Source: an uncultured archaeon
GTDB taxonomy: Archaea > Iainarchaeota > Iainarchaeia > Iainarchaeales > CSSED10-239
DNA length: 5,699 nucleotides
Direction of reading: 5' to 3'
Assembly (NCBI GenBank): GCA_964468895.1
Contig: CAYXWT010000044.1
Coordinates: 1-5,699 of the forward strand
A program made the translations under genes and the position numbers. This document shows, piece by piece, positions 1-5,699 of the stretch (position 1 is the stretch's first letter; every line of letters begins with the position of its first letter). Under the pieces are notes generated by a model. That model worked only from the letters and a program-made list of their open reading frames with translations, searched no databases and was not told where the DNA came from.

Positions 1-11
1 CGCCAGAAGCT
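1..11 (+). repeat. Partial copy (3' 11 nt, CGCCAGAAGCT) of the boundary repeat; identical to 5689-5699, and 8 of the 11 nt (CGCCAGAA) also occur at 4201-4208
   Basis: Exact 11/11 string identity between the first and last 11 nt of the window. The 11-mer has 6 G/C in a window that is otherwise about 75% A+T. Confidence 0.7.
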
Positions 12-51
12 TTGTTATAATTAATTATTATTTTAATTCAATTAATACTTT

Positions 52-58
52 TTCTGGC
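52..58. repeat. TTCTGGC, inverted complement of GCCAGAA at 2-8, separated by a 43-nt almost pure A/T spacer
   Basis: Direct reverse-complement match of 7 nt. If the left arm is extended using the copy at 5678-5696, about 7 of the next 11 positions also pair once one base is bulged. Confidence 0.45.
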
Positions 59-259
59 TGAGAAATCAAGAATATTAAATTTGATAAATGTATTCTGTGA
101 TATATTATTACATACAAATTTTTTTTAAGTACTTAATTCAAATGTTTTTCTGTTTTCATATTATTATAGTTTTTAATAATTTTAATTATAGAAATAGGTA
201 AATAAAAGCTTTGTATTAAACTTGAAATTGCAAAGTTGTTTTCTTTTTTTGATGATAAT

Positions 260-280
260 CTATGTAACAATGTTACATAG
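260..280. promoter_or_regulatory. Perfect palindrome CTATGTAACA-A-TGTTACATAG; candidate PadR autoregulatory operator
   Basis: Arms of 10 nt with a 1-nt centre. It contains ATGT-N9-ACAT, close to the ATGT-N8-ACAT motif reported for PadR-family operators. It sits immediately upstream of a TATA-like box and 34 nt upstream of the padR-like ATG. Confidence 0.6.
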
Positions 281-281
281 G

Positions 282-290
282 TTTATATAT
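282..290 (+). promoter_or_regulatory. TATA-box-like TTTATATAT centred about 27 nt before the ATG at 314 (implies a leaderless or near-leaderless mRNA if the host is archaeal)
   Basis: Spacing to the start codon matches archaeal TATA-to-TSS spacing, and no Shine-Dalgarno motif precedes 314. Caveat: many A/T strings in this region look TATA-like. Confidence 0.35.
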
Positions 291-313
291 TTTTTGTTAT
301 ATATATTTCTATA

Positions 314-673
314 ATGGTTACTACAGAATATATAGATAATTATCCTGAAAAAATATGGTTGCAATTTCTTATATTGAGATTGATTTATGAAAATCCAACT
401 TATGGATATCAGTTAATTAAAGATATTCATAAAATAAGTCAAGGGAAACATATAGTTAAATCAGGTACTATGTATACTACTCTTAGACGAATGGAAAAAA
501 ATAATTTATTAAATTCTGTTTGGGAAAAAAATAAATCAGGTCCTAATAGTAGGATTTATAATATAACTATAAAAGGTAAATTAAAACTTAAGAGTTTACT
601 TAAAATGGTTGTTGAAAGAAAAACAATAATAGATAAAATGATTAAATTCTATAAAAAAGAATTTAAAGAATAA
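314..673 (+). CDS. PadR-family transcriptional regulator (short, ~119 aa, winged helix-turn-helix)
   Basis: Hallmark PadR pattern: YGYQLIKDI ... GTMYTTLRRMEKNNLLNSVWE ... G..RIYNITIKG, followed by a C-terminal helix. Size fits the short PadR subfamily (LmrR-like). Confidence 0.85.
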   Translation: MVTTEYIDNYPEKIWLQFLILRLIYENPTYGYQLIKDIHKISQGKHIVKSGTMYTTLRRMEKNNLLNSVWEKNKSGPNSRIYNITIKGKLKLKSLLKMVVERKTIIDKMIKFYKKEFKE

Positions 674-701
674 TAAAATATATGATTAATTAAGATGATT
701 T

Positions 702-926
702 ATGAAATTAAAACTACATAAAATTTTATTATGGATTACTATGATATCTTTATTTTTTTTAACTATTTCAACTATTCCTTTATTAGTTAGTTTTTTAAAA
801 AATGTTGATGTTAAGTTTCCAATTTTGGTGAATATTCACGTTTGGTCTGGTGTTGTATTATTATTAGTTATATTAATTAGAGTTTGTATTAATCGTAAAA
901 AATTAAAAATTATGCTTACTAATTAG
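702..926 (+). CDS. Small integral membrane protein, two predicted TM helices, unknown function
   Basis: Hydrophobic stretches ILLWITMISLFFLTISTIPLLVSFL and VWSGVVLLLVILIRVCI, with a basic tail RKKLK. It is co-oriented and lies 28 nt after the PadR stop. The H-x-W-x-G before TM2 is faintly reminiscent of DUF4405-type membrane proteins (weak). Confidence 0.55.
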   Translation: MKLKLHKILLWITMISLFFLTISTIPLLVSFLKNVDVKFPILVNIHVWSGVVLLLVILIRVCINRKKLKIMLTN

Positions 927-943
927 TTATTTTTTTAAAAATT

Positions 944-949
944 AAGGAG
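944..949 (+). promoter_or_regulatory. Shine-Dalgarno-like AAGGAG upstream of the surface-protein gene
   Basis: AAGGAG lies 4 nt before TTG at 954 and 13 nt before ATG at 963. Confidence 0.45.
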
Positions 950-953
950 TTTA

Positions 954-2150
954 TTGATTTGCATGTTTAATAAAAAAATTGTTTTTGTATTGTTTTTATT
1001 TTTATTTCTATCTTTTATTTCTGGATTCGTTTTTTCAGAAAGGTATATAGATAGTTCTTATGTACAAGTTATTGCGCAAGAAGTTAGCCCTGAACCAGTA
1101 GAACCAGGACAAGATTTTTTAATAAAAGTTAGAGTTCATAATTTTGGAACCGTTGATGCCACTAATGTAAAGGTTAATCTAAATTTAAATTATCCTTTTT
1201 ATCTAAAAAATACTAGTGAAGCGTTTGTTGATTTTAATAAAATTTGTTCTAATTGTTCTGCAGAAAATACATATTATTTTACAGTAGATAGTTCTGCAGT
1301 TTCAGGAATCTATCCTATACATTTTAATATTTCTGAAATTAATAATAAAACTGTATCTTTTAGGCCTCAAATAATAGATGTTTCTATTTTAGGTAAACCA
1401 GATTTAGTTTTAGAAACTAAACAAATTGATAAAAATATTTCTGCAGGAGATATTTTTAATATTTCTTTTCTTTTAAAAAATATCGGTACGGGAAACTCTA
1501 GAAATATTAAAGTGATTCCTAATTCAAAAGATTTTATGCTTTTAGGATCAAATACTAAATGGTTTGACAAATTAGGTCCTAATCAAGAGGTGTTATTTGA
1601 TTTAAATTTTATCTCTAATAAAGATCTAGTTGCAAACAGTTATTTATTCCCTATAAATTTAGAATTTTTAGGAGAAAAACAAAATATTCATACTTATTCT
1701 TATAACATTGGAATTAATCTTTTAGGAAAAGCAGATTTGTCTTTACAAAATCTAAAAATTAATCCCGTAAATCCTAATTTAAAAGATTTAGTTAGTTTTG
1801 AAGGTGTTATTGAAAATATTGGAAATGGTAAGGCAAATAATGTTTTTGTAGAATTATTTATTTTAAATGGAAATAATTATAAATATTTTATTGGACAATT
1901 AAATAAAGATGATGATGCTCCATTTTATTTTAATAAAATTAAATTTGATTCTTATGGAGATAATGAAGTTATTTTAAAAATAAACTATAATGATGATTAT
2001 GGTAATTATGAACTAGAAATACCATTTAATCAAAATGTGCAAAAATCTTCTAATTTGTCTTTATTTTTAATAATTTTGATGTTATTTTTAATTTTAGGTT
2101 CTAGTTTATATTTCTTAAAATTTAAAAAAAACAAAAAAACAAAAAAATAA
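954..2150 (+). CDS. Secreted, C-terminally membrane-anchored surface protein with three CARDB / COG1361 (S-layer-domain-like) beta-sandwich repeats
   Basis: N-terminal signal-like segment KKIVFVLFLFLFLSFISGFVFS. Three units with a 111-aa period (GKPDLVL at aa 147, GKADLSL at aa 258), each with the CARDB-like signature: P.PVEPGQDF.I.V.V.N.G...A.NV.V, then ISAGDIF.ISFLLKNIGTGNSRNIKV, then NPNLKDLVSFEGVIENIGNGKANNVFV. C-terminal TM LSLFLIILMLFLILGSSLYFL plus a KFKKNKKTKK tail. At least 7 N-x-S/T sequons. The start may be TTG 954 or ATG 963. Confidence 0.75.
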   Translation: MICMFNKKIVFVLFLFLFLSFISGFVFSERYIDSSYVQVIAQEVSPEPVEPGQDFLIKVRVHNFGTVDATNVKVNLNLNYPFYLKNTSEAFVDFNKICSNCSAENTYYFTVDSSAVSGIYPIHFNISEINNKTVSFRPQIIDVSILGKPDLVLETKQIDKNISAGDIFNISFLLKNIGTGNSRNIKVIPNSKDFMLLGSNTKWFDKLGPNQEVLFDLNFISNKDLVANSYLFPINLEFLGEKQNIHTYSYNIGINLLGKADLSLQNLKINPVNPNLKDLVSFEGVIENIGNGKANNVFVELFILNGNNYKYFIGQLNKDDDAPFYFNKIKFDSYGDNEVILKINYNDDYGNYELEIPFNQNVQKSSNLSLFLIILMLFLILGSSLYFLKFKKNKKTKK

Positions 2151-2169
2151 AGAAATGATTTAGACTTAC

Positions 2170-3369
2170 ATGAATAAAAAAGATTTAAAGTTAATGTTTT
2201 TTTTAGCTTATAAAAATATTGTGAAAAGCAAATCTACTTTTTTAGTAATCGTAGCTGTAATGGCTATGAGTTTTTTATCAATCACTTTTTTTTCTGCAAT
2301 TATTGATGGTCTTAGTTATGAGTTTGAAGACTCAATGATTAAAGGTCAAACTGGTCATCTAATGATTGAACCCTCATCAGAGGAAAGTTTCATTTTTAAT
2401 TCAAATAGGCTTGAAAAAAATATATTTAAAATTCCTGGAGTAGTTGGTGTTGCTTCAAGATTAGAATCAAATATTTTAATTACTTTTAAAAATGAAGAGT
2501 TAGGTGCTCCAGTATTTTTCATTGATCCTGTTGATGAACTAAAAGTATCTAATTTTCACGAAAGTATAATTGAAGGTAGTTTTCTTTCATATAAAGATAC
2601 AGATGAAATTATTGTTGGTGCTGATTTATTAGAACAGTATGCTCCAAAAGATGATACTAAAAAAAGATTTAATCTTAGAGTAGGAGATCATGTTAATTTA
2701 ACCTTTAATAATGGATATACAAAAGAATATAAGATTAAAGGAATTTTTAAAACTGGTTCGAAATTTAGTGATGATAAAATATTAATTAATAAAAAAGAAT
2801 ATTTTTCTATATTTAAAAAAGAAAATATATCTCATAAAATACTTATTAAACTTCCGTCAAGAGGTTTAGAAAAAGAGTATATTCAAAAAATAAAAGCTTT
2901 AGGTGTTACTGAACAAATAAATCCATGGGAAACAAAAATTGGAATGATTAAACAATTTATAGGAAGTCTTCAAATTACTAATCAAATTACTGGTTTTATT
3001 GGTTTATTAACTGCATTTGCAACCATATATATTATTATTTTTATAAATGTTACAAATAAAAGAAAACAAATTGGTATTTTAAAAGCAATTGGTATAAAGA
3101 AAATAATTATACTAGGCTCATATATAATGCAATCTTTTATGTATGGTTTTATAGGTGTTATTTTAGGAAATATTATTATGCAAATTTTATTAGCTTTATT
3201 TGTAAGTCATCCTTTAGCTATGCCAATTGGAGATGTAGTTCCTTTATTGACAACAACTAAATTATTAACTACATCTTTGATTTTAATTCTTGCATCTATA
3301 ATTGCTGGTTTTTTTCCTTCAAGAAAAGCAGCTAATGATAATATTCTAGATGCTATATTTGGTGGCTAA
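2170..3369 (+). CDS. ABC transporter permease, FtsX/MacB-type (COG0577): TM1, ~220-aa extracytoplasmic domain, three C-terminal TMs
   Basis: N-terminal YKNIVKSKSTFLVIVAVMAMSFL is typical of MacB/LolC-like permeases, followed by a long soluble insert. The FtsX-domain motif KRKQIGILKAIGIKK lies between TM2 and TM3, and the terminal FFPSRKAANDNILDAI matches the family C-terminus. Confidence 0.9.
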   Translation: MNKKDLKLMFFLAYKNIVKSKSTFLVIVAVMAMSFLSITFFSAIIDGLSYEFEDSMIKGQTGHLMIEPSSEESFIFNSNRLEKNIFKIPGVVGVASRLESNILITFKNEELGAPVFFIDPVDELKVSNFHESIIEGSFLSYKDTDEIIVGADLLEQYAPKDDTKKRFNLRVGDHVNLTFNNGYTKEYKIKGIFKTGSKFSDDKILINKKEYFSIFKKENISHKILIKLPSRGLEKEYIQKIKALGVTEQINPWETKIGMIKQFIGSLQITNQITGFIGLLTAFATIYIIIFINVTNKRKQIGILKAIGIKKIIILGSYIMQSFMYGFIGVILGNIIMQILLALFVSHPLAMPIGDVVPLLTTTKLLTTSLILILASIIAGFFPSRKAANDNILDAIFGG

Positions 3370-3372
3370 ATT

Positions 3373-4062
3373 ATGATTAAAAATATTATTGAAGTAAATA
3401 AACTTGAAAGAATATATTCTAATGGTATAATTAAAACATATGCATTAAGAGATGTGTCTTTTAACATTAAGTCTGGTGAGTTTATTGCAATTATGGGGCC
3501 AAGTGGGTCTGGAAAAAGCACCTTACTTCATCAATTAGGCTTACTTGATTCACCTACAAATGGAAGTATTAAAATAGATACTGAAGATGTTTCTAAATTA
3601 ACAGATAATGACAAAACTAATTTTAGATTAGATAAATTAGGTTATGTTTTTCAATCTTATAATTTATTGCCAGAACTTAATGTTATTGAAAATGTTTTTT
3701 TAACTTCAATGGCAAAAGGACTAGAACCTCAAGATTATATTCTAAGAGCAAAAGATATTCTTGAAAGAGTAGGTCTTAAAGATAGGCTTTATTATTATCC
3801 TTCTGAGCTTTCTGGAGGTCAGCAACAAAGAGTTTCTATTGCTAGAGCATTAGTTAACAAACCTAAAATATTATTTGCAGATGAACCTACTGCAAATCTT
3901 GATTCTGATTCTTCTAAAGATGTAATCGATTTGTTTAGAAAATTAAATAAAGAAATTAATCAAACTATTGTAATGGTAACTCACGAGATTGATGAAGGTA
4001 AAAAAGCAGATAAGATAATTTGGATTAAAGATGGAATTTTAGATAATTCTAAGAATGTTTAA
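3373..4062 (+). CDS. ABC transporter ATP-binding protein, COG1136 (LolD/MacB/FtsE-like) class
   Basis: Walker A GPSGSGKST (nt 3496-3522), Q-loop VFQSYNL, signature LSGGQQQR (from nt 3808), Walker B ILFADEPT (from nt 3868) and H-loop VTHE. It starts 3 nt after the permease stop, with GGTGG 7 nt upstream. Confidence 0.95.
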   Translation: MIKNIIEVNKLERIYSNGIIKTYALRDVSFNIKSGEFIAIMGPSGSGKSTLLHQLGLLDSPTNGSIKIDTEDVSKLTDNDKTNFRLDKLGYVFQSYNLLPELNVIENVFLTSMAKGLEPQDYILRAKDILERVGLKDRLYYYPSELSGGQQQRVSIARALVNKPKILFADEPTANLDSDSSKDVIDLFRKLNKEINQTIVMVTHEIDEGKKADKIIWIKDGILDNSKNV

Positions 4063-4090
4063 TTCCTTGTCATATTGAGTAAAAAATAAA

Positions 4091-4115
4091 AAAATTAACT
4101 AAATTAGTTAATTTT
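4091..4115 (+). terminator. AT-rich hairpin AAAATTAACTA-AAT-TAGTTAATTTT followed by T-runs (4121-4124, 4129-4133, T7 at 4159-4165); candidate end of the ABC operon
   Basis: Perfect 11-bp inverted repeat with a 3-nt loop, 29 nt after the stop at 4062. Oligo-T tracts downstream fit archaeal or intrinsic termination. The stem is almost all A-T, so its stability is low. Confidence 0.35.
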
Positions 4116-4166
4116 AAATATTTTAATGTTTTTATAAGAAGAAAACAAGATAAAGTGATTTTTTTA

Positions 4167-4209
4167 AAAAAAGAATGCTTTTAACTTTTAGCTTAACTTT
4201 CGCCAGAAA
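4167..4209 (+). repeat. Boundary repeat copy A (AAAAAAGAATGCTTTTAACTTTTAGCTTAACTTTCGCCAGAAA)
   Basis: Ungapped alignment with 5655-5697 (offset 1488): 32/43 identical, and all 11 differences are transitions. Invariant blocks are GCTTTTAAC and CGCCAGAA. Confidence 0.7.
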
Positions 4210-4233
4210 GATTACTGCCCAAAAAAGGTTTAT

Positions 4234-4254
4234 TTGTGCACTTAGAGTGCACAA
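4234..4254. promoter_or_regulatory. Palindrome TTGTGCAC-TTAGA-GTGCACAA (twin GTGCAC hexamers) abutting a TATA-like TTTAAAAA (4255-4262); candidate operator for the ATPase gene
   Basis: Perfect 8-bp arms with a 5-nt spacer. The TATA-like box is centred about 26 nt before the ATG at 4285. The layout matches the PadR promoter at 260-290. Confidence 0.45.
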
Positions 4255-4284
4255 TTTAAAAACAATTCTATTTCTATATATTAT

Positions 4285-5547
4285 ATGGATAAAAAATATC
4301 TTGAGCAAATAGTTCTAGATCAAAAACAAAGATTATCTAAATTAGAAAATGGATATTCTAGAGATAAGCTATCAGAAATATCGAATTTAATAAAACCTAA
4401 AATAAATATAGTTGTTACTGGTCATAGAAGAGTAGGGAAATCTACTTTTCTTTTACAATGGATGAATAAATATTATAGTTCTGACTTCTATTATCTTGAT
4501 TTTTCGGACGAAAGATTAGCTGGCTTTGAAACTAAAGATTTTCAAGTATTATATGAAATATTTCTTGAAAATTTTGGAGAAAAAAAGGTTTTCTTTTTTG
4601 ATGAATTACAAGGTAAAAGATATGATTGGAACAAGTTTGTAAATAGATTATATTCTGAAGGAAAAAGATTCTTTATAACTGGTTCTAATGCTGAATTATT
4701 AAGTAAAGAAATATCCACATATCTTACAGGTAGACACTTTGATATTAGCATGTATCCTTTTTCTTTTAAAGAGTATTTAGGTTATAATAGTTTCAATAAA
4801 AACTATAAATCTACTTCTGGAAAAGTAGAAGCAATTAAATATTTTAATAAATATATAAAAGAAGGGGGATTTCCAGAAGTTATAGTTTATGGAAATAAAG
4901 ACATATTAGAAAATATATATCAAGATGTTATAAATACAGATATTTTATCTAGATATAATATAAAAGAAGAAGTTGAATTTAAGAAAATGGCTTTGTTTCT
5001 AATATTTAACTTTTCAAAAGAATTTTCTTATACTTCTTTAAAGAATAACTATAATTTAGGAAGTACACATACTGCTAAAAAATATGTTTCATATCTAACT
5101 AATACATATTTATTATTTGAGTTAACAAAATATGATTATTCTTTAAAAAAACAAGAAAACTATAGTAAAAAAATTTATGTTATAGATCCTGGACTAATTA
5201 ATCAATTAGCTTTTGCTTTTTCAGATAATATTGGTAGATTATATGAAAACGTAGTTTTTATAGAACTTTTAAGAAGAGGAAAAAAAGTTTATTTTTTTAA
5301 GGATAAACTTGATTATGAAATAGATTTTATAACTTTAGAGAAAAATAAAATTGTTTCTTTGATACAAGTATGTTATGACTTAAATGATATAAAGACTAAA
5401 GAAAGGGAAATAAGAGGATTATTATCTGGATTAGATGAATTCAAACTAAAAGAAGGAATAATAATAACTCGAGATTTAGAAAAAGAAGAAAAAATAGATG
5501 ATAAAATAATTAAATTTACTCCTTTATGGAAATGGTTATTAGAATAA
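4285..5547 (+). CDS. COG1373-type AAA+ ATPase (AAA_14 N-terminal domain + DUF4143 C-terminal domain)
   Basis: Walker A GHRRVGKST (nt 4420-4446), Walker B FFFDELQ (D-E at 4600-4605), ITGSNA sensor-like motif, and a C-terminal YEIDFI ... IQVCY segment aligning with the EVDF ... IEVK nuclease-fold motif I recall for this family. Length of 420 aa is typical. Confidence 0.85.
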   Translation: MDKKYLEQIVLDQKQRLSKLENGYSRDKLSEISNLIKPKINIVVTGHRRVGKSTFLLQWMNKYYSSDFYYLDFSDERLAGFETKDFQVLYEIFLENFGEKKVFFFDELQGKRYDWNKFVNRLYSEGKRFFITGSNAELLSKEISTYLTGRHFDISMYPFSFKEYLGYNSFNKNYKSTSGKVEAIKYFNKYIKEGGFPEVIVYGNKDILENIYQDVINTDILSRYNIKEEVEFKKMALFLIFNFSKEFSYTSLKNNYNLGSTHTAKKYVSYLTNTYLLFELTKYDYSLKKQENYSKKIYVIDPGLINQLAFAFSDNIGRLYENVVFIELLRRGKKVYFFKDKLDYEIDFITLEKNKIVSLIQVCYDLNDIKTKEREIRGLLSGLDEFKLKEGIIITRDLEKEEKIDDKIIKFTPLWKWLLE

Positions 5548-5654
5548 AGTTATAAATATAAAAACAAAGATTAATGTGGAAAACTTTTTTATTAAAAATA
5601 TTTATAAATTAATTTTAATAATAGTTAATAGGCATTTTAATAGTTATGAATAAT

Positions 5655-5699
5655 AAAAAGGAGCGCTTTTAACCTTTGGTTCAATTCCCGCCAGAAGCT
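5655..5699 (+). repeat. Boundary repeat copy B (AAAAAGGAGCGCTTTTAACCTTTGGTTCAATTCCCGCCAGAAGCT); the last 11 nt equal window positions 1-11
   Basis: See copy A. It begins 108 nt after the ATPase stop, as copy A begins 105 nt after the ABC ATPase stop. Confidence 0.7.

Follow-up and report, generated by a model that had tools for sequence, protein, structure and literature searches.

The window, i.e. the whole 5,699-nt stretch of DNA analysed here, has a GC content of 23% and contains six substantial open reading frames (ORFs), all on the plus strand. Positions of these ORFs, of the two cassette units to which they belong and of the sites at the unit ends are given in Table 1, together with the split integrase found in related contigs (designated by L numbers).

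Table 1. Positions of features in the window and, where a contig is named, in related contigs
Feature	Position	Strand	Assignment or remark
Upstream site, last 11 nt (CGCCAGAAGCT)	1..11	+	Part of T-stem 3′ strand, acceptor-stem 3′ strand and discriminator of tRNA-Thr(GGU)
Cassette unit 1	12..4172	+	PadR/ABC-transporter genes (Pfam); ends in decayed site 4173-4211
PadR regulator	314-673	+	Pfam
74-aa membrane ORF	702-926	+	Unit 1
CARDB-like secreted protein	954-2150	+	Pfam
FtsX permease	2170-3369	+	Pfam
ABC ATPase	3373-4062	+	Pfam
Degenerate 39-nt site, boundary of units 1 and 2	4173..4211	+	nhmmer E 1.8e-8
Cassette unit 2	4212..5660	+	AAA_14 unit; ends in canonical site 5661-5699
AAA_14/DUF4143 ATPase	4285-5547	+	Pfam E 4.5e-32 and 1.5e-24
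Canonical site, left arm (GAGCGCTTTTAACCTTT)	5661..5677	+	Preceded by A-run 5655-5660
Canonical site, right arm (GGTTCAATTCCCGCCAGAAGCT)	5678..5699	+	tRNA-Thr(GGU) positions 52-73
Split integrase parts	L090 21-884; L109 3499-4380; L114 9962-10825, 18928-19221; L007 467-706; L108 327-560	n/a	PF16795; tRNA-Thr(GGU) of AT-rich Iainarchaeota MAGs

The region upstream of the AAA_14 gene in unit 2 contains a palindrome at 4234-4254 and a TATA-like box. This palindrome (TTGTGCAC-TTAGA-GTGCACAA) is perfect and is partly conserved in L108. Upstream of the PadR gene, at 261-279, lies another perfect palindrome (TATGTAACAATGTTACATA), which L110 has conserved. The two palindromes probably act as operators. 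Within the CARDB-like gene, direct repeats at 1228-1268/1924-1964 and 1388-1430/1721-1763 fit an arrangement of tandem Ig-like domains; apart from them, no repeats in the window had a score comparable to that of the 43-nt pair described below. Pfam searches revealed no recombinase domain in the window ORFs or in the other cassette units.

The 43-nt repeat and its proposed fold

The original prediction described a repeat of about 43 nt behind each transcription unit, about 105 nt past a stop codon. Realignment of 4167-4209 and 5655-5697 bore out this description: the two copies aligned without gaps at 32 of 43 identical positions, all 11 differences were transitions, the blocks GCTTTTAAC and CGCCAGAA were the same in both full copies, and the copies begin 105 and 108 nt downstream of the stops at 4062 and 5547. 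Their similarity is not due to chance. Only one other pair of 43-mers in the window scored 32/43, and it lies inside the repetitive CARDB-like gene. The block CGCCAGAA occurred three times in the window versus 0.01 times expected, and if the sequences were unrelated and AT-rich, 11 transitions among 11 differences would have P ~4e-7. A third, truncated copy, overlooked in the original prediction, consists of window bases 1-11. Its sequence (CGCCAGAAGCT) is present at both ends, and the window thus begins and finishes within the repeat. The span 4167-4209 takes in an A-run ahead of the 39-nt site at 4173-4211.

We aligned 15 distinct copies from related contigs, counted the originally proposed base pairs and compared these counts with shuffles. 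Relative to the consensus, this family had accumulated 36 transitions and 15 transversions, so that a restriction to transitions does not hold as a property of the repeat. Changes from GC to AT accounted for 32 of the 36 transitions, an excess that represents the mutational bias expected in a genome with 23% GC. The copy at 4173-4211 differed from the consensus by 10 transitions (8 of them GC to AT). Hence, the all-transition pattern of the window pair results from AT-biased decay of copy 1 and not from structural constraint.

According to the original prediction, both copies adopt the same fold, as a selected RNA or single-stranded DNA (ssDNA) structure would. However, the minimum free energy (MFE) structures of the two copies differed from each other and from the proposed fold. 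Folding z-scores of the window copies were +0.25 to +1.5 as RNA and ~0 as DNA (either strand; dinucleotide shuffles), i.e. neither copy was more stable than its shuffles. The proposed outer pair 4175-4197 is A·C in copy 1, so that the double change at alignment positions 9 and 31 destroys this pair instead of keeping it, and the inner helix requires a register shift between the copies. Across the 15 copies, the proposed pairs were formed in 86.7% of the cells versus 86.4% in shuffles. The covariation score (0.150 versus 0.145 in shuffles) was equalled or exceeded by 237 of 500 shuffles, i.e. covariation did not rise above the shuffled background. The outer pair 6-34, previously regarded as compensatory, was paired in the two window copies only and unpaired in 13 of 15. 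Pair 20-24 was the sole pair that varied and was yet kept (CG in 10 copies, UG in three and UA in two).

A selected stem-loop acting in 3′-end processing or stability, as a small RNA or as a REP-like element would suit the location of the repeat 105-108 nt past the stops of co-oriented units. It would also suit the inner hairpin AACY-TTT-RGTT, which was paired in 96.7% of the cells and includes the pair that alternates between CG, UG and UA. The arms of this hairpin, however, are inherited tRNA segments (see below): AACC is the 5′ strand of the anticodon stem, GGTT occurs in both the anticodon stem and the T-arm, and the hairpin places AACC opposite the GGTT that opens the T-arm block. Descent from tRNA therefore explains why the AACC/GGTT hairpin is conserved. 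Moreover, some sites follow minus-strand genes (as in the CARDB unit of L001), and the left arm of the repeat is missing in L089 and L110. Rfam gave no match on the repeat at E ≤ 10 in the window and 10 related loci, and neither a curated family nor fold stability above shuffles nor covariation assigned it to structured RNAs or REP-like elements. We consider such a stem-loop very improbable, and with a fold equal to shuffles and no covariation the original claim of a selected structure was given up. Of the four roles that had been suggested for the repeat, comparative evidence favours the recombination site. The apparent compensatory changes are a two-sequence coincidence superimposed on tRNA-derived complementarity and GC to AT decay. 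These results correct the tempting view of the 43-nt repeat as a covarying RNA.

Similarity of the site to tRNA-Thr(GGU)

The 22-nt right arm of the site (GGTTCAATTCCCGCCAGAAGCT) comprises the T-loop, the 3′ strand of the T-stem, the 3′ strand of the acceptor stem and the discriminator of tRNA-Thr(GGU). It matched the intact tRNA-Thr at 22 of 22 positions in L109 and L090, and at 21 of 22 in L008. The left arm (GAGCGCTTTTAACCTT) aligned to tRNA positions 22-33 as GAGCGC----AACCTT, i.e. with 12 of 12 matches and a 4-nt insertion, and only 2 of 5000 shuffles equalled the score of this alignment. This arm was conserved in 13 of the 15 distinct copies, across several species, and the variant copies in L030 and L066 retained TAAGGTT, which corresponds to tRNA positions 36-42. 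Contiguous identity between site and tRNA extended over 22-24 nt, and the left arm was not colinear with the tRNA. Judged from these alignments, the site looks like a copy of tRNA-Thr without the anticodon, the variable loop and the 5′ strand of the T-stem. The left 17-19 nt are best explained as a rearranged remnant, or a mimic, of the D-stem/anticodon-stem region.

An intact tRNA-Thr gene was found at 1399-1470 of L008 (ARAGORN; Rfam score of 68 bits), directly followed by the sequence of the window from base 12 onward. In L114, the gene is located at 9962-10033, upstream of sites at 19706 and 20247. Hence, in both contigs one end of the array is occupied by the intact target tRNA, which has the orientation of the repeats. 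ARAGORN detected 0 tRNAs in the window, and the Rfam tRNA model recognised intact genes only, leaving the repeat unmatched. We rejected a tRNA gene, a split-tRNA half and an intron-bearing tRNA pseudogene as identities of the site, because the 5′ strands of the acceptor stem and the T-stem are absent and no Rfam or ARAGORN signal was obtained.

The T-loop reads TTCGACT in the resident attR47/tRNA-Thr of L108 (536-557) and L114 (10013-10033), whereas the cassette sites in these contigs (L108 3772-3810, L114 20247-20285) have retained TTCAATT or TTAAAGT. The cassette sites have not been homogenised with the resident tRNA, and they may have arrived with cassettes from another lineage.

Variable neighbours in near-identical contigs and distribution of the sites

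Exact-protein look-ups located the window within larger contigs. It corresponds to L002 396-6094 at 100% identity, and to L001 and L003 at at least 99.98%. At identities of at least 99.97%, the window had three upstream and two downstream contexts. Unit 1 (from base 12) was preceded by the intact tRNA in L008, by an integrase fragment, Int(N), with attR47 in L007, and by the site of a cassette with a CARDB gene in L001, L002, L003 and L006. Bases 1-11 close the intact tRNA in the first case, a 47-nt fragment of the tRNA, with which a 79-aa ORF overlaps, in the second, and a canonical 39-nt site in the third. On the other side, the AAA_14 unit was followed by a unit with a 1905-aa surface protein in L001/L002 or by an Lnt-like unit in L003/L004; the sequence downstream of the final T of the window reads tttggaatt in the former versus ccaggaaggg in the latter. 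The Lnt-like unit, in turn, had the AAA_14 unit (L003/L004), a 249-aa ORF (L021) or the 1905-aa unit (L083) as its upstream neighbour. The 249-aa ORF had a methyltransferase match below threshold only. The breakpoints between alternative neighbours are located at the sites, in DNA that is at least 99.7% identical.

The base preceding window position 1 was polymorphic (C/T) between contigs. The window ends inside the repeat because its ends coincide with branch points, marked by this polymorphic base upstream and by the divergent continuations downstream. We rejected the idea of a circular contig, based on the identical 11-nt ends, since L001-L003 embed the window linearly and its ends are branch points of the assembly graph.

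More divergent versions of the units were found in further contexts. The block of unit 1 recurred at 86% identity in L110, where a core-only fragment that has no left site is located downstream of the PadR-ABC block. The AAA_14 unit recurred at 82% identity in L108 (1689-3042), behind a Fic cassette, and the homology starts at window position 4193, within the decayed site. Chimeric half-sites break directly after GGTT in L108, directly after GGTTCAAT in L114, and directly before AGGTTCAA in L089 and L110.

A metagenome scan with the pattern GCTTTTAAC-N15-CGCCAGAA, which had been proposed as a search for further copies, yielded 76 matches. The scan did recover additional related copies, at six loci with 24-28% GC (L021, L030, L033, L035, L066 and L083); most matches, i.e. 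all the remaining ones, had arisen by chance in bacteria of normal GC content. When genomes were scanned with the 20-nt core, this led to DPANN Iainarchaeota (Ca. Iainarchaeum, Ca. ainarchaeum, Ca. Forterrea), and the core had 0 matches in viral contigs. In several Iainarchaeota MAGs, tRNA-Thr is followed by 39-45-nt sites that are co-oriented with the tRNA and located between cargo units. The order is attR47, Fic, site, AAA_14, site in L108, and tRNA-Thr, Int(C), ~9 kb, Int(N) with a 47-nt attR, HicA, half-site, ORF, site, NYN in L114. The same architecture of tRNA-Thr, sites and cargo was present in L030, L083, L066 and L106.

Cargo units ranged from 0.5 to 6 kb. They encode PadR-ABC, AAA_14/DUF4143, Fic/DOC, HicA/HicB, NYN and deaminase proteins, methyltransferases, a CN-hydrolase/Lnt-like protein, an FGE-sulfatase and giant Fn3_assoc surface proteins, which is typical island content. 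ORFs of 313-318 aa that abut sites were considered as integrases and turned out to be Fic/DOC and His-methyltransferase proteins. No PF00589-type protein was listed within ±10 kb of tRNA-Thr in L114 and L119, nor in L001. The literature that we searched describes no such arrays or suicidal integrases for Iainarchaeota or DPANN.

Archaeal termination uses oligo-T. A transcription terminator or insulator between cassettes, composed of the A-run, an AAAAG-AGCG-CTTTT hairpin and T-runs, with an incidental similarity to tRNA, would account for the position of the sites at unit ends. The AAAAG/CUUUU hairpin is indeed part of the MFE structure of the canonical copy, and runs of T4 and T3 follow it. 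However, the T-runs are short and the A-run is missing in several copies (L033, L030). A scan for consensus intrinsic terminators found none, which is weak evidence, as the model is bacterial. A terminator would also leave both the 22-nt identity to the tRNA 3′ end and the switching of contexts unexplained. We regard this alternative as highly unlikely.

Several other elements were noted near the sites. A conserved GC-rich non-coding element with a long hairpin (GATAGTTAGGAGGAGC...GCTCCCCTATC) is present at L089 3990-4175 (minus strand) and L110 3165-3340, and had no match in Rfam. In L089 a 24-nt core-only fragment of tRNA-Thr follows immediately downstream of this element, and in L110 an inserted PadR-ABC block separates the element from the core-only fragment. 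A GC-rich module of ~60 nt (TTGAGCTGGTTTCGG...CAATGGTTTTGATAATT) occurs at L108 1609-1706, at L030 3526-3588 and about 7346, and from L114 19731 onward. It is flanked by a left half-site on one side and by a degenerate right half-site on the other, and may be a gene-less mini-cassette or a remnant of a longer pseudo-tRNA. In L001, an inverted partial site at 160-185 (AAAGGTTCAATTCCC, minus strand) adjoins the 47-nt attR where the minus-strand cassette with the CARDB gene ends. An inversion may have left this trace, or it may stem from a different tRNA fragment.

Integration and proposed exchange of units at the tRNA-Thr locus

The Int(C) ORF of L090 (21-884) reads through the 3′ part of the tRNA (...VRLRSRVQFPPEA, continuing as CQEISLD...), and matched PF16795 (E 8.8e-24) as well as the catalytic domain of the SSV1 integrase (3VCF/4DKS; E 2.5e-8). 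The Int(N) ORF has a length of 79 aa in L007 and L001, 77 aa in L108 and 97 aa in L114, with the same att-encoded C-terminal peptide. A fusion of Int(N) and Int(C) aligned end-to-end (35% identity over 338 residues) with P0063, a 344-aa integrase from a circular 4.77-kb replicon that also carries a D5_N/DUF5906 primase-helicase. The 47-nt att extends from the anticodon stem up to the tRNA 3′ end, and L114 represents the complete integrated state of this split-integrase element. The integrase copy in L109 looks frame-broken.

The tRNA-Thr system is thus of the partitioning ('suicidal') SSV type described in PMC8371274 and PMC7253208. As in SSV1, pTN3 and pT26-2, where attP lies inside int and is split into int(N) and int(C) upon integration, the same system is present at the same tRNA-Thr in our related contigs. 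These two reviews report the SSV-type family from Sulfolobales, Thermococcales, Archaeoglobales and Methanosarcinales and do not mention DPANN, whereas here the host is an AT-rich, mesophile-like DPANN lineage. Our results show split SSV-type integrases at work in AT-rich Iainarchaeota. The tRNA-Thr locus is a proven integration hotspot, and because the SSV-type element inserts between the tRNA and the array, the array is the native downstream neighbour of the tRNA.

The repeat in the window differs from an SSV-type att. An att of this type has a block of 40-50 bp that is exactly identical to the tRNA (PMC8371274). The 47-nt att of L090, L007, L108 and L114 lies within int; in contrast, the window repeat is located outside int, falls short of this block length, is not colinear with the tRNA, is non-coding and is not flanked by int fragments. 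No ORF reads through the repeat, which carries a TAA in the Int frame. Given this stop codon, the position outside the integrase ORF and the 22-24 nt of tRNA identity, the site does not qualify as a canonical SSV-type att. We also rejected a decayed attR of the SSV type, because all copies share the non-colinear left arm and contain no coding remnants of Int(N).

We interpret the repeat as an att-type site derived from tRNA-Thr(GGU), which delimits mobile cassettes at a tRNA integration hotspot, and assign a probability of about 0.7 to this interpretation. It builds on direct observations of the tRNA identity, the sites at block boundaries, the differing block orders in near-identical contigs and the split integrase. 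From these we infer enzymatic, site-specific exchange by a trans-acting recombinase, with circular intermediates and the crossover point discussed below. Circles of DNA with a single site would recombine with the 3′ end of the tRNA or with any resident site. Each insertion would restore the end of the tRNA and leave a hybrid site at the distal end of the unit, and recombination between two direct sites would delete or excise the intervening units. The crossover would most likely take place in or beside the T-loop. The breaks of the half-sites listed above, together with an identity block in which GG is followed by TTCAATT, point to the T-loop as exchange zone.

The enzyme would most likely be a tyrosine recombinase and, as no such protein is encoded in the units, would act in trans. 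At the locus itself, the split SSV-type integrase with its own 47-nt att was the sole recombinase observed. Archaeal att sites are 3′ segments of tRNA genes that need nucleotides beyond the identity block of attB and attP, shifted to the 5′ side (PMC8371274), and the conserved left arm of the repeat fits this need. Several findings argue against the att interpretation. No recombinase was tied to the 39-45-nt site, and no circular cassette junction was observed. The placement of the PadR-ABC block in L110 does not agree with an integration that simply uses the core. An exchange with the resident tRNA that overlaps the T-loop would be mismatched in L108 and L114, because the tRNA or attR47 has TTCGACT there and the sites TTCAATT.

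Homologous recombination between 40-nt repeats could yield the same rearrangements and is a live alternative. In its full form, this alternative holds that the sites are passive scars, i.e. decayed fragments of tRNA-Thr, and that cassettes are shuffled by homologous recombination or gene conversion between direct repeats of ~40 nt. It agrees with the lack of an integrase in or beside the units, with the existence of half-sites and the decay of several sites through GC to AT transitions, and with the L110 placement, which is at odds with site-specific insertion. Furthermore, integrated elements that lie in tandem are described to exchange modules through homologous recombination in archaea (PMC8371274). 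However, the non-colinear left arm, with the same internal 'deletions', is kept across species whose coding regions are 82-86% identical, which speaks for constraint or for a functional site that was propagated repeatedly. The breakpoints of half-sites are concentrated at the T-loop and are not spread over the repeat, and gain of new units, beyond deletion, would require a circular or flanked donor. Hence, we consider purely passive scars unlikely and favour the att-type site.

The element belongs with the tandem att direct repeats of tRNA-targeting integrated DNA. Tandem islands at tRNA or tmRNA genes include the ssrA islands of Dehalococcoides (PMC3146451) and archaeal integrated elements (PMC8371274). 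As in these direct repeats, the repeat equals the 3′ end of the target tRNA, one end is formed by the intact tRNA, blocks acquired by horizontal transfer are set apart by co-oriented repeats, and presence/absence polymorphism occurs exactly at the repeats. In contrast to such elements, the units of Iainarchaeota lack an integrase, the tRNA identity is limited to 22-24 nt, and the conserved left arm resembles an internally deleted tRNA and is common to unrelated cassettes and several species.

The units themselves resemble the cis-mobilizable elements (CIMEs) that have been reviewed, with the accretion arrays of ICEs and IMEs, in PMC5704250. Like CIMEs, they are att-flanked, lack recombination genes, stand in tandem beside the integration site and are presumably mobilisable in trans. 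However, CIMEs are bacterial, originate from the decay of ICEs or IMEs and are linked to conjugation, whereas here the cargo units are archaeal, 0.5-6 kb in size, and their mobilisation in trans would follow from our model. Similar to integron arrays, the locus consists of short co-oriented cargo units that each end in an element resembling a recombination site, the cargo includes toxin-antitoxin and accessory genes, and the cassette order varies among close relatives. Unlike integrons, there is no IntI, the units have their own TATA-like promoters and regulators, and a tRNA gene serves as anchor. We rejected an integron attC: the site contains no imperfect palindrome of 57-141 nt, its only hairpin has 4-6 bp, DNA folding z-scores were at least 0 on both strands, and GTTCAAT violates the core motif GTTRRRY.

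A more specific model, which we put forward tentatively and regard as somewhat improbable, is that Iainarchaeota possess a tRNA-anchored, integron-like platform. In this model, a recombinase from another locus would act in trans to capture, excise and reshuffle integrase-less units with a 'mini-tRNA-Thr' site (positions 22-33 fused to 52-73). This recombinase could belong to the suicidal SSV-type family, which also targets tRNA-Thr. A search for the site or the tRNA-Thr core in the integrase contigs L115-L118 and L122-L125 found neither, except for the start of Int(N)/att at the end of L123-L125.

These findings place a recombination hotspot in the poorly known genomes of DPANN archaea, where accessory genes, including a transporter, an ATPase, toxin-antitoxins and surface proteins, are swapped between near-identical strains. 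If mobilisation in trans through a mini-tRNA site holds true, the system would represent the archaeal counterpart to integron cassettes or cis-mobilizable elements, and would offer a practical handle to delimit flexible regions in DPANN MAGs. An integron-like platform, if true, would give genome-reduced symbionts a dedicated route for the exchange of accessory genes.

Two types of contigs with full-length integrases or related replicons were noted. L116, noted together with L115, L117 and L118, is 4897 nt long with a terminal overlap of 127 nt, i.e. a circle of ~4.77 kb, and has 36% GC. It encodes the full-length 344-aa SSV-type integrase and the D5_N/DUF5906 primase-helicase mentioned above, and is a small integrative plasmid or virus. 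L122 (JGI 3300039186, from a sample shared with L003) is a 6-kb contig with 22% GC. It encodes a full-length PF16795 integrase of 320 aa (3006-3968) adjoining an AAA_25/DnaB_C-like protein, and may represent an episome from the organism of the window or from its community.
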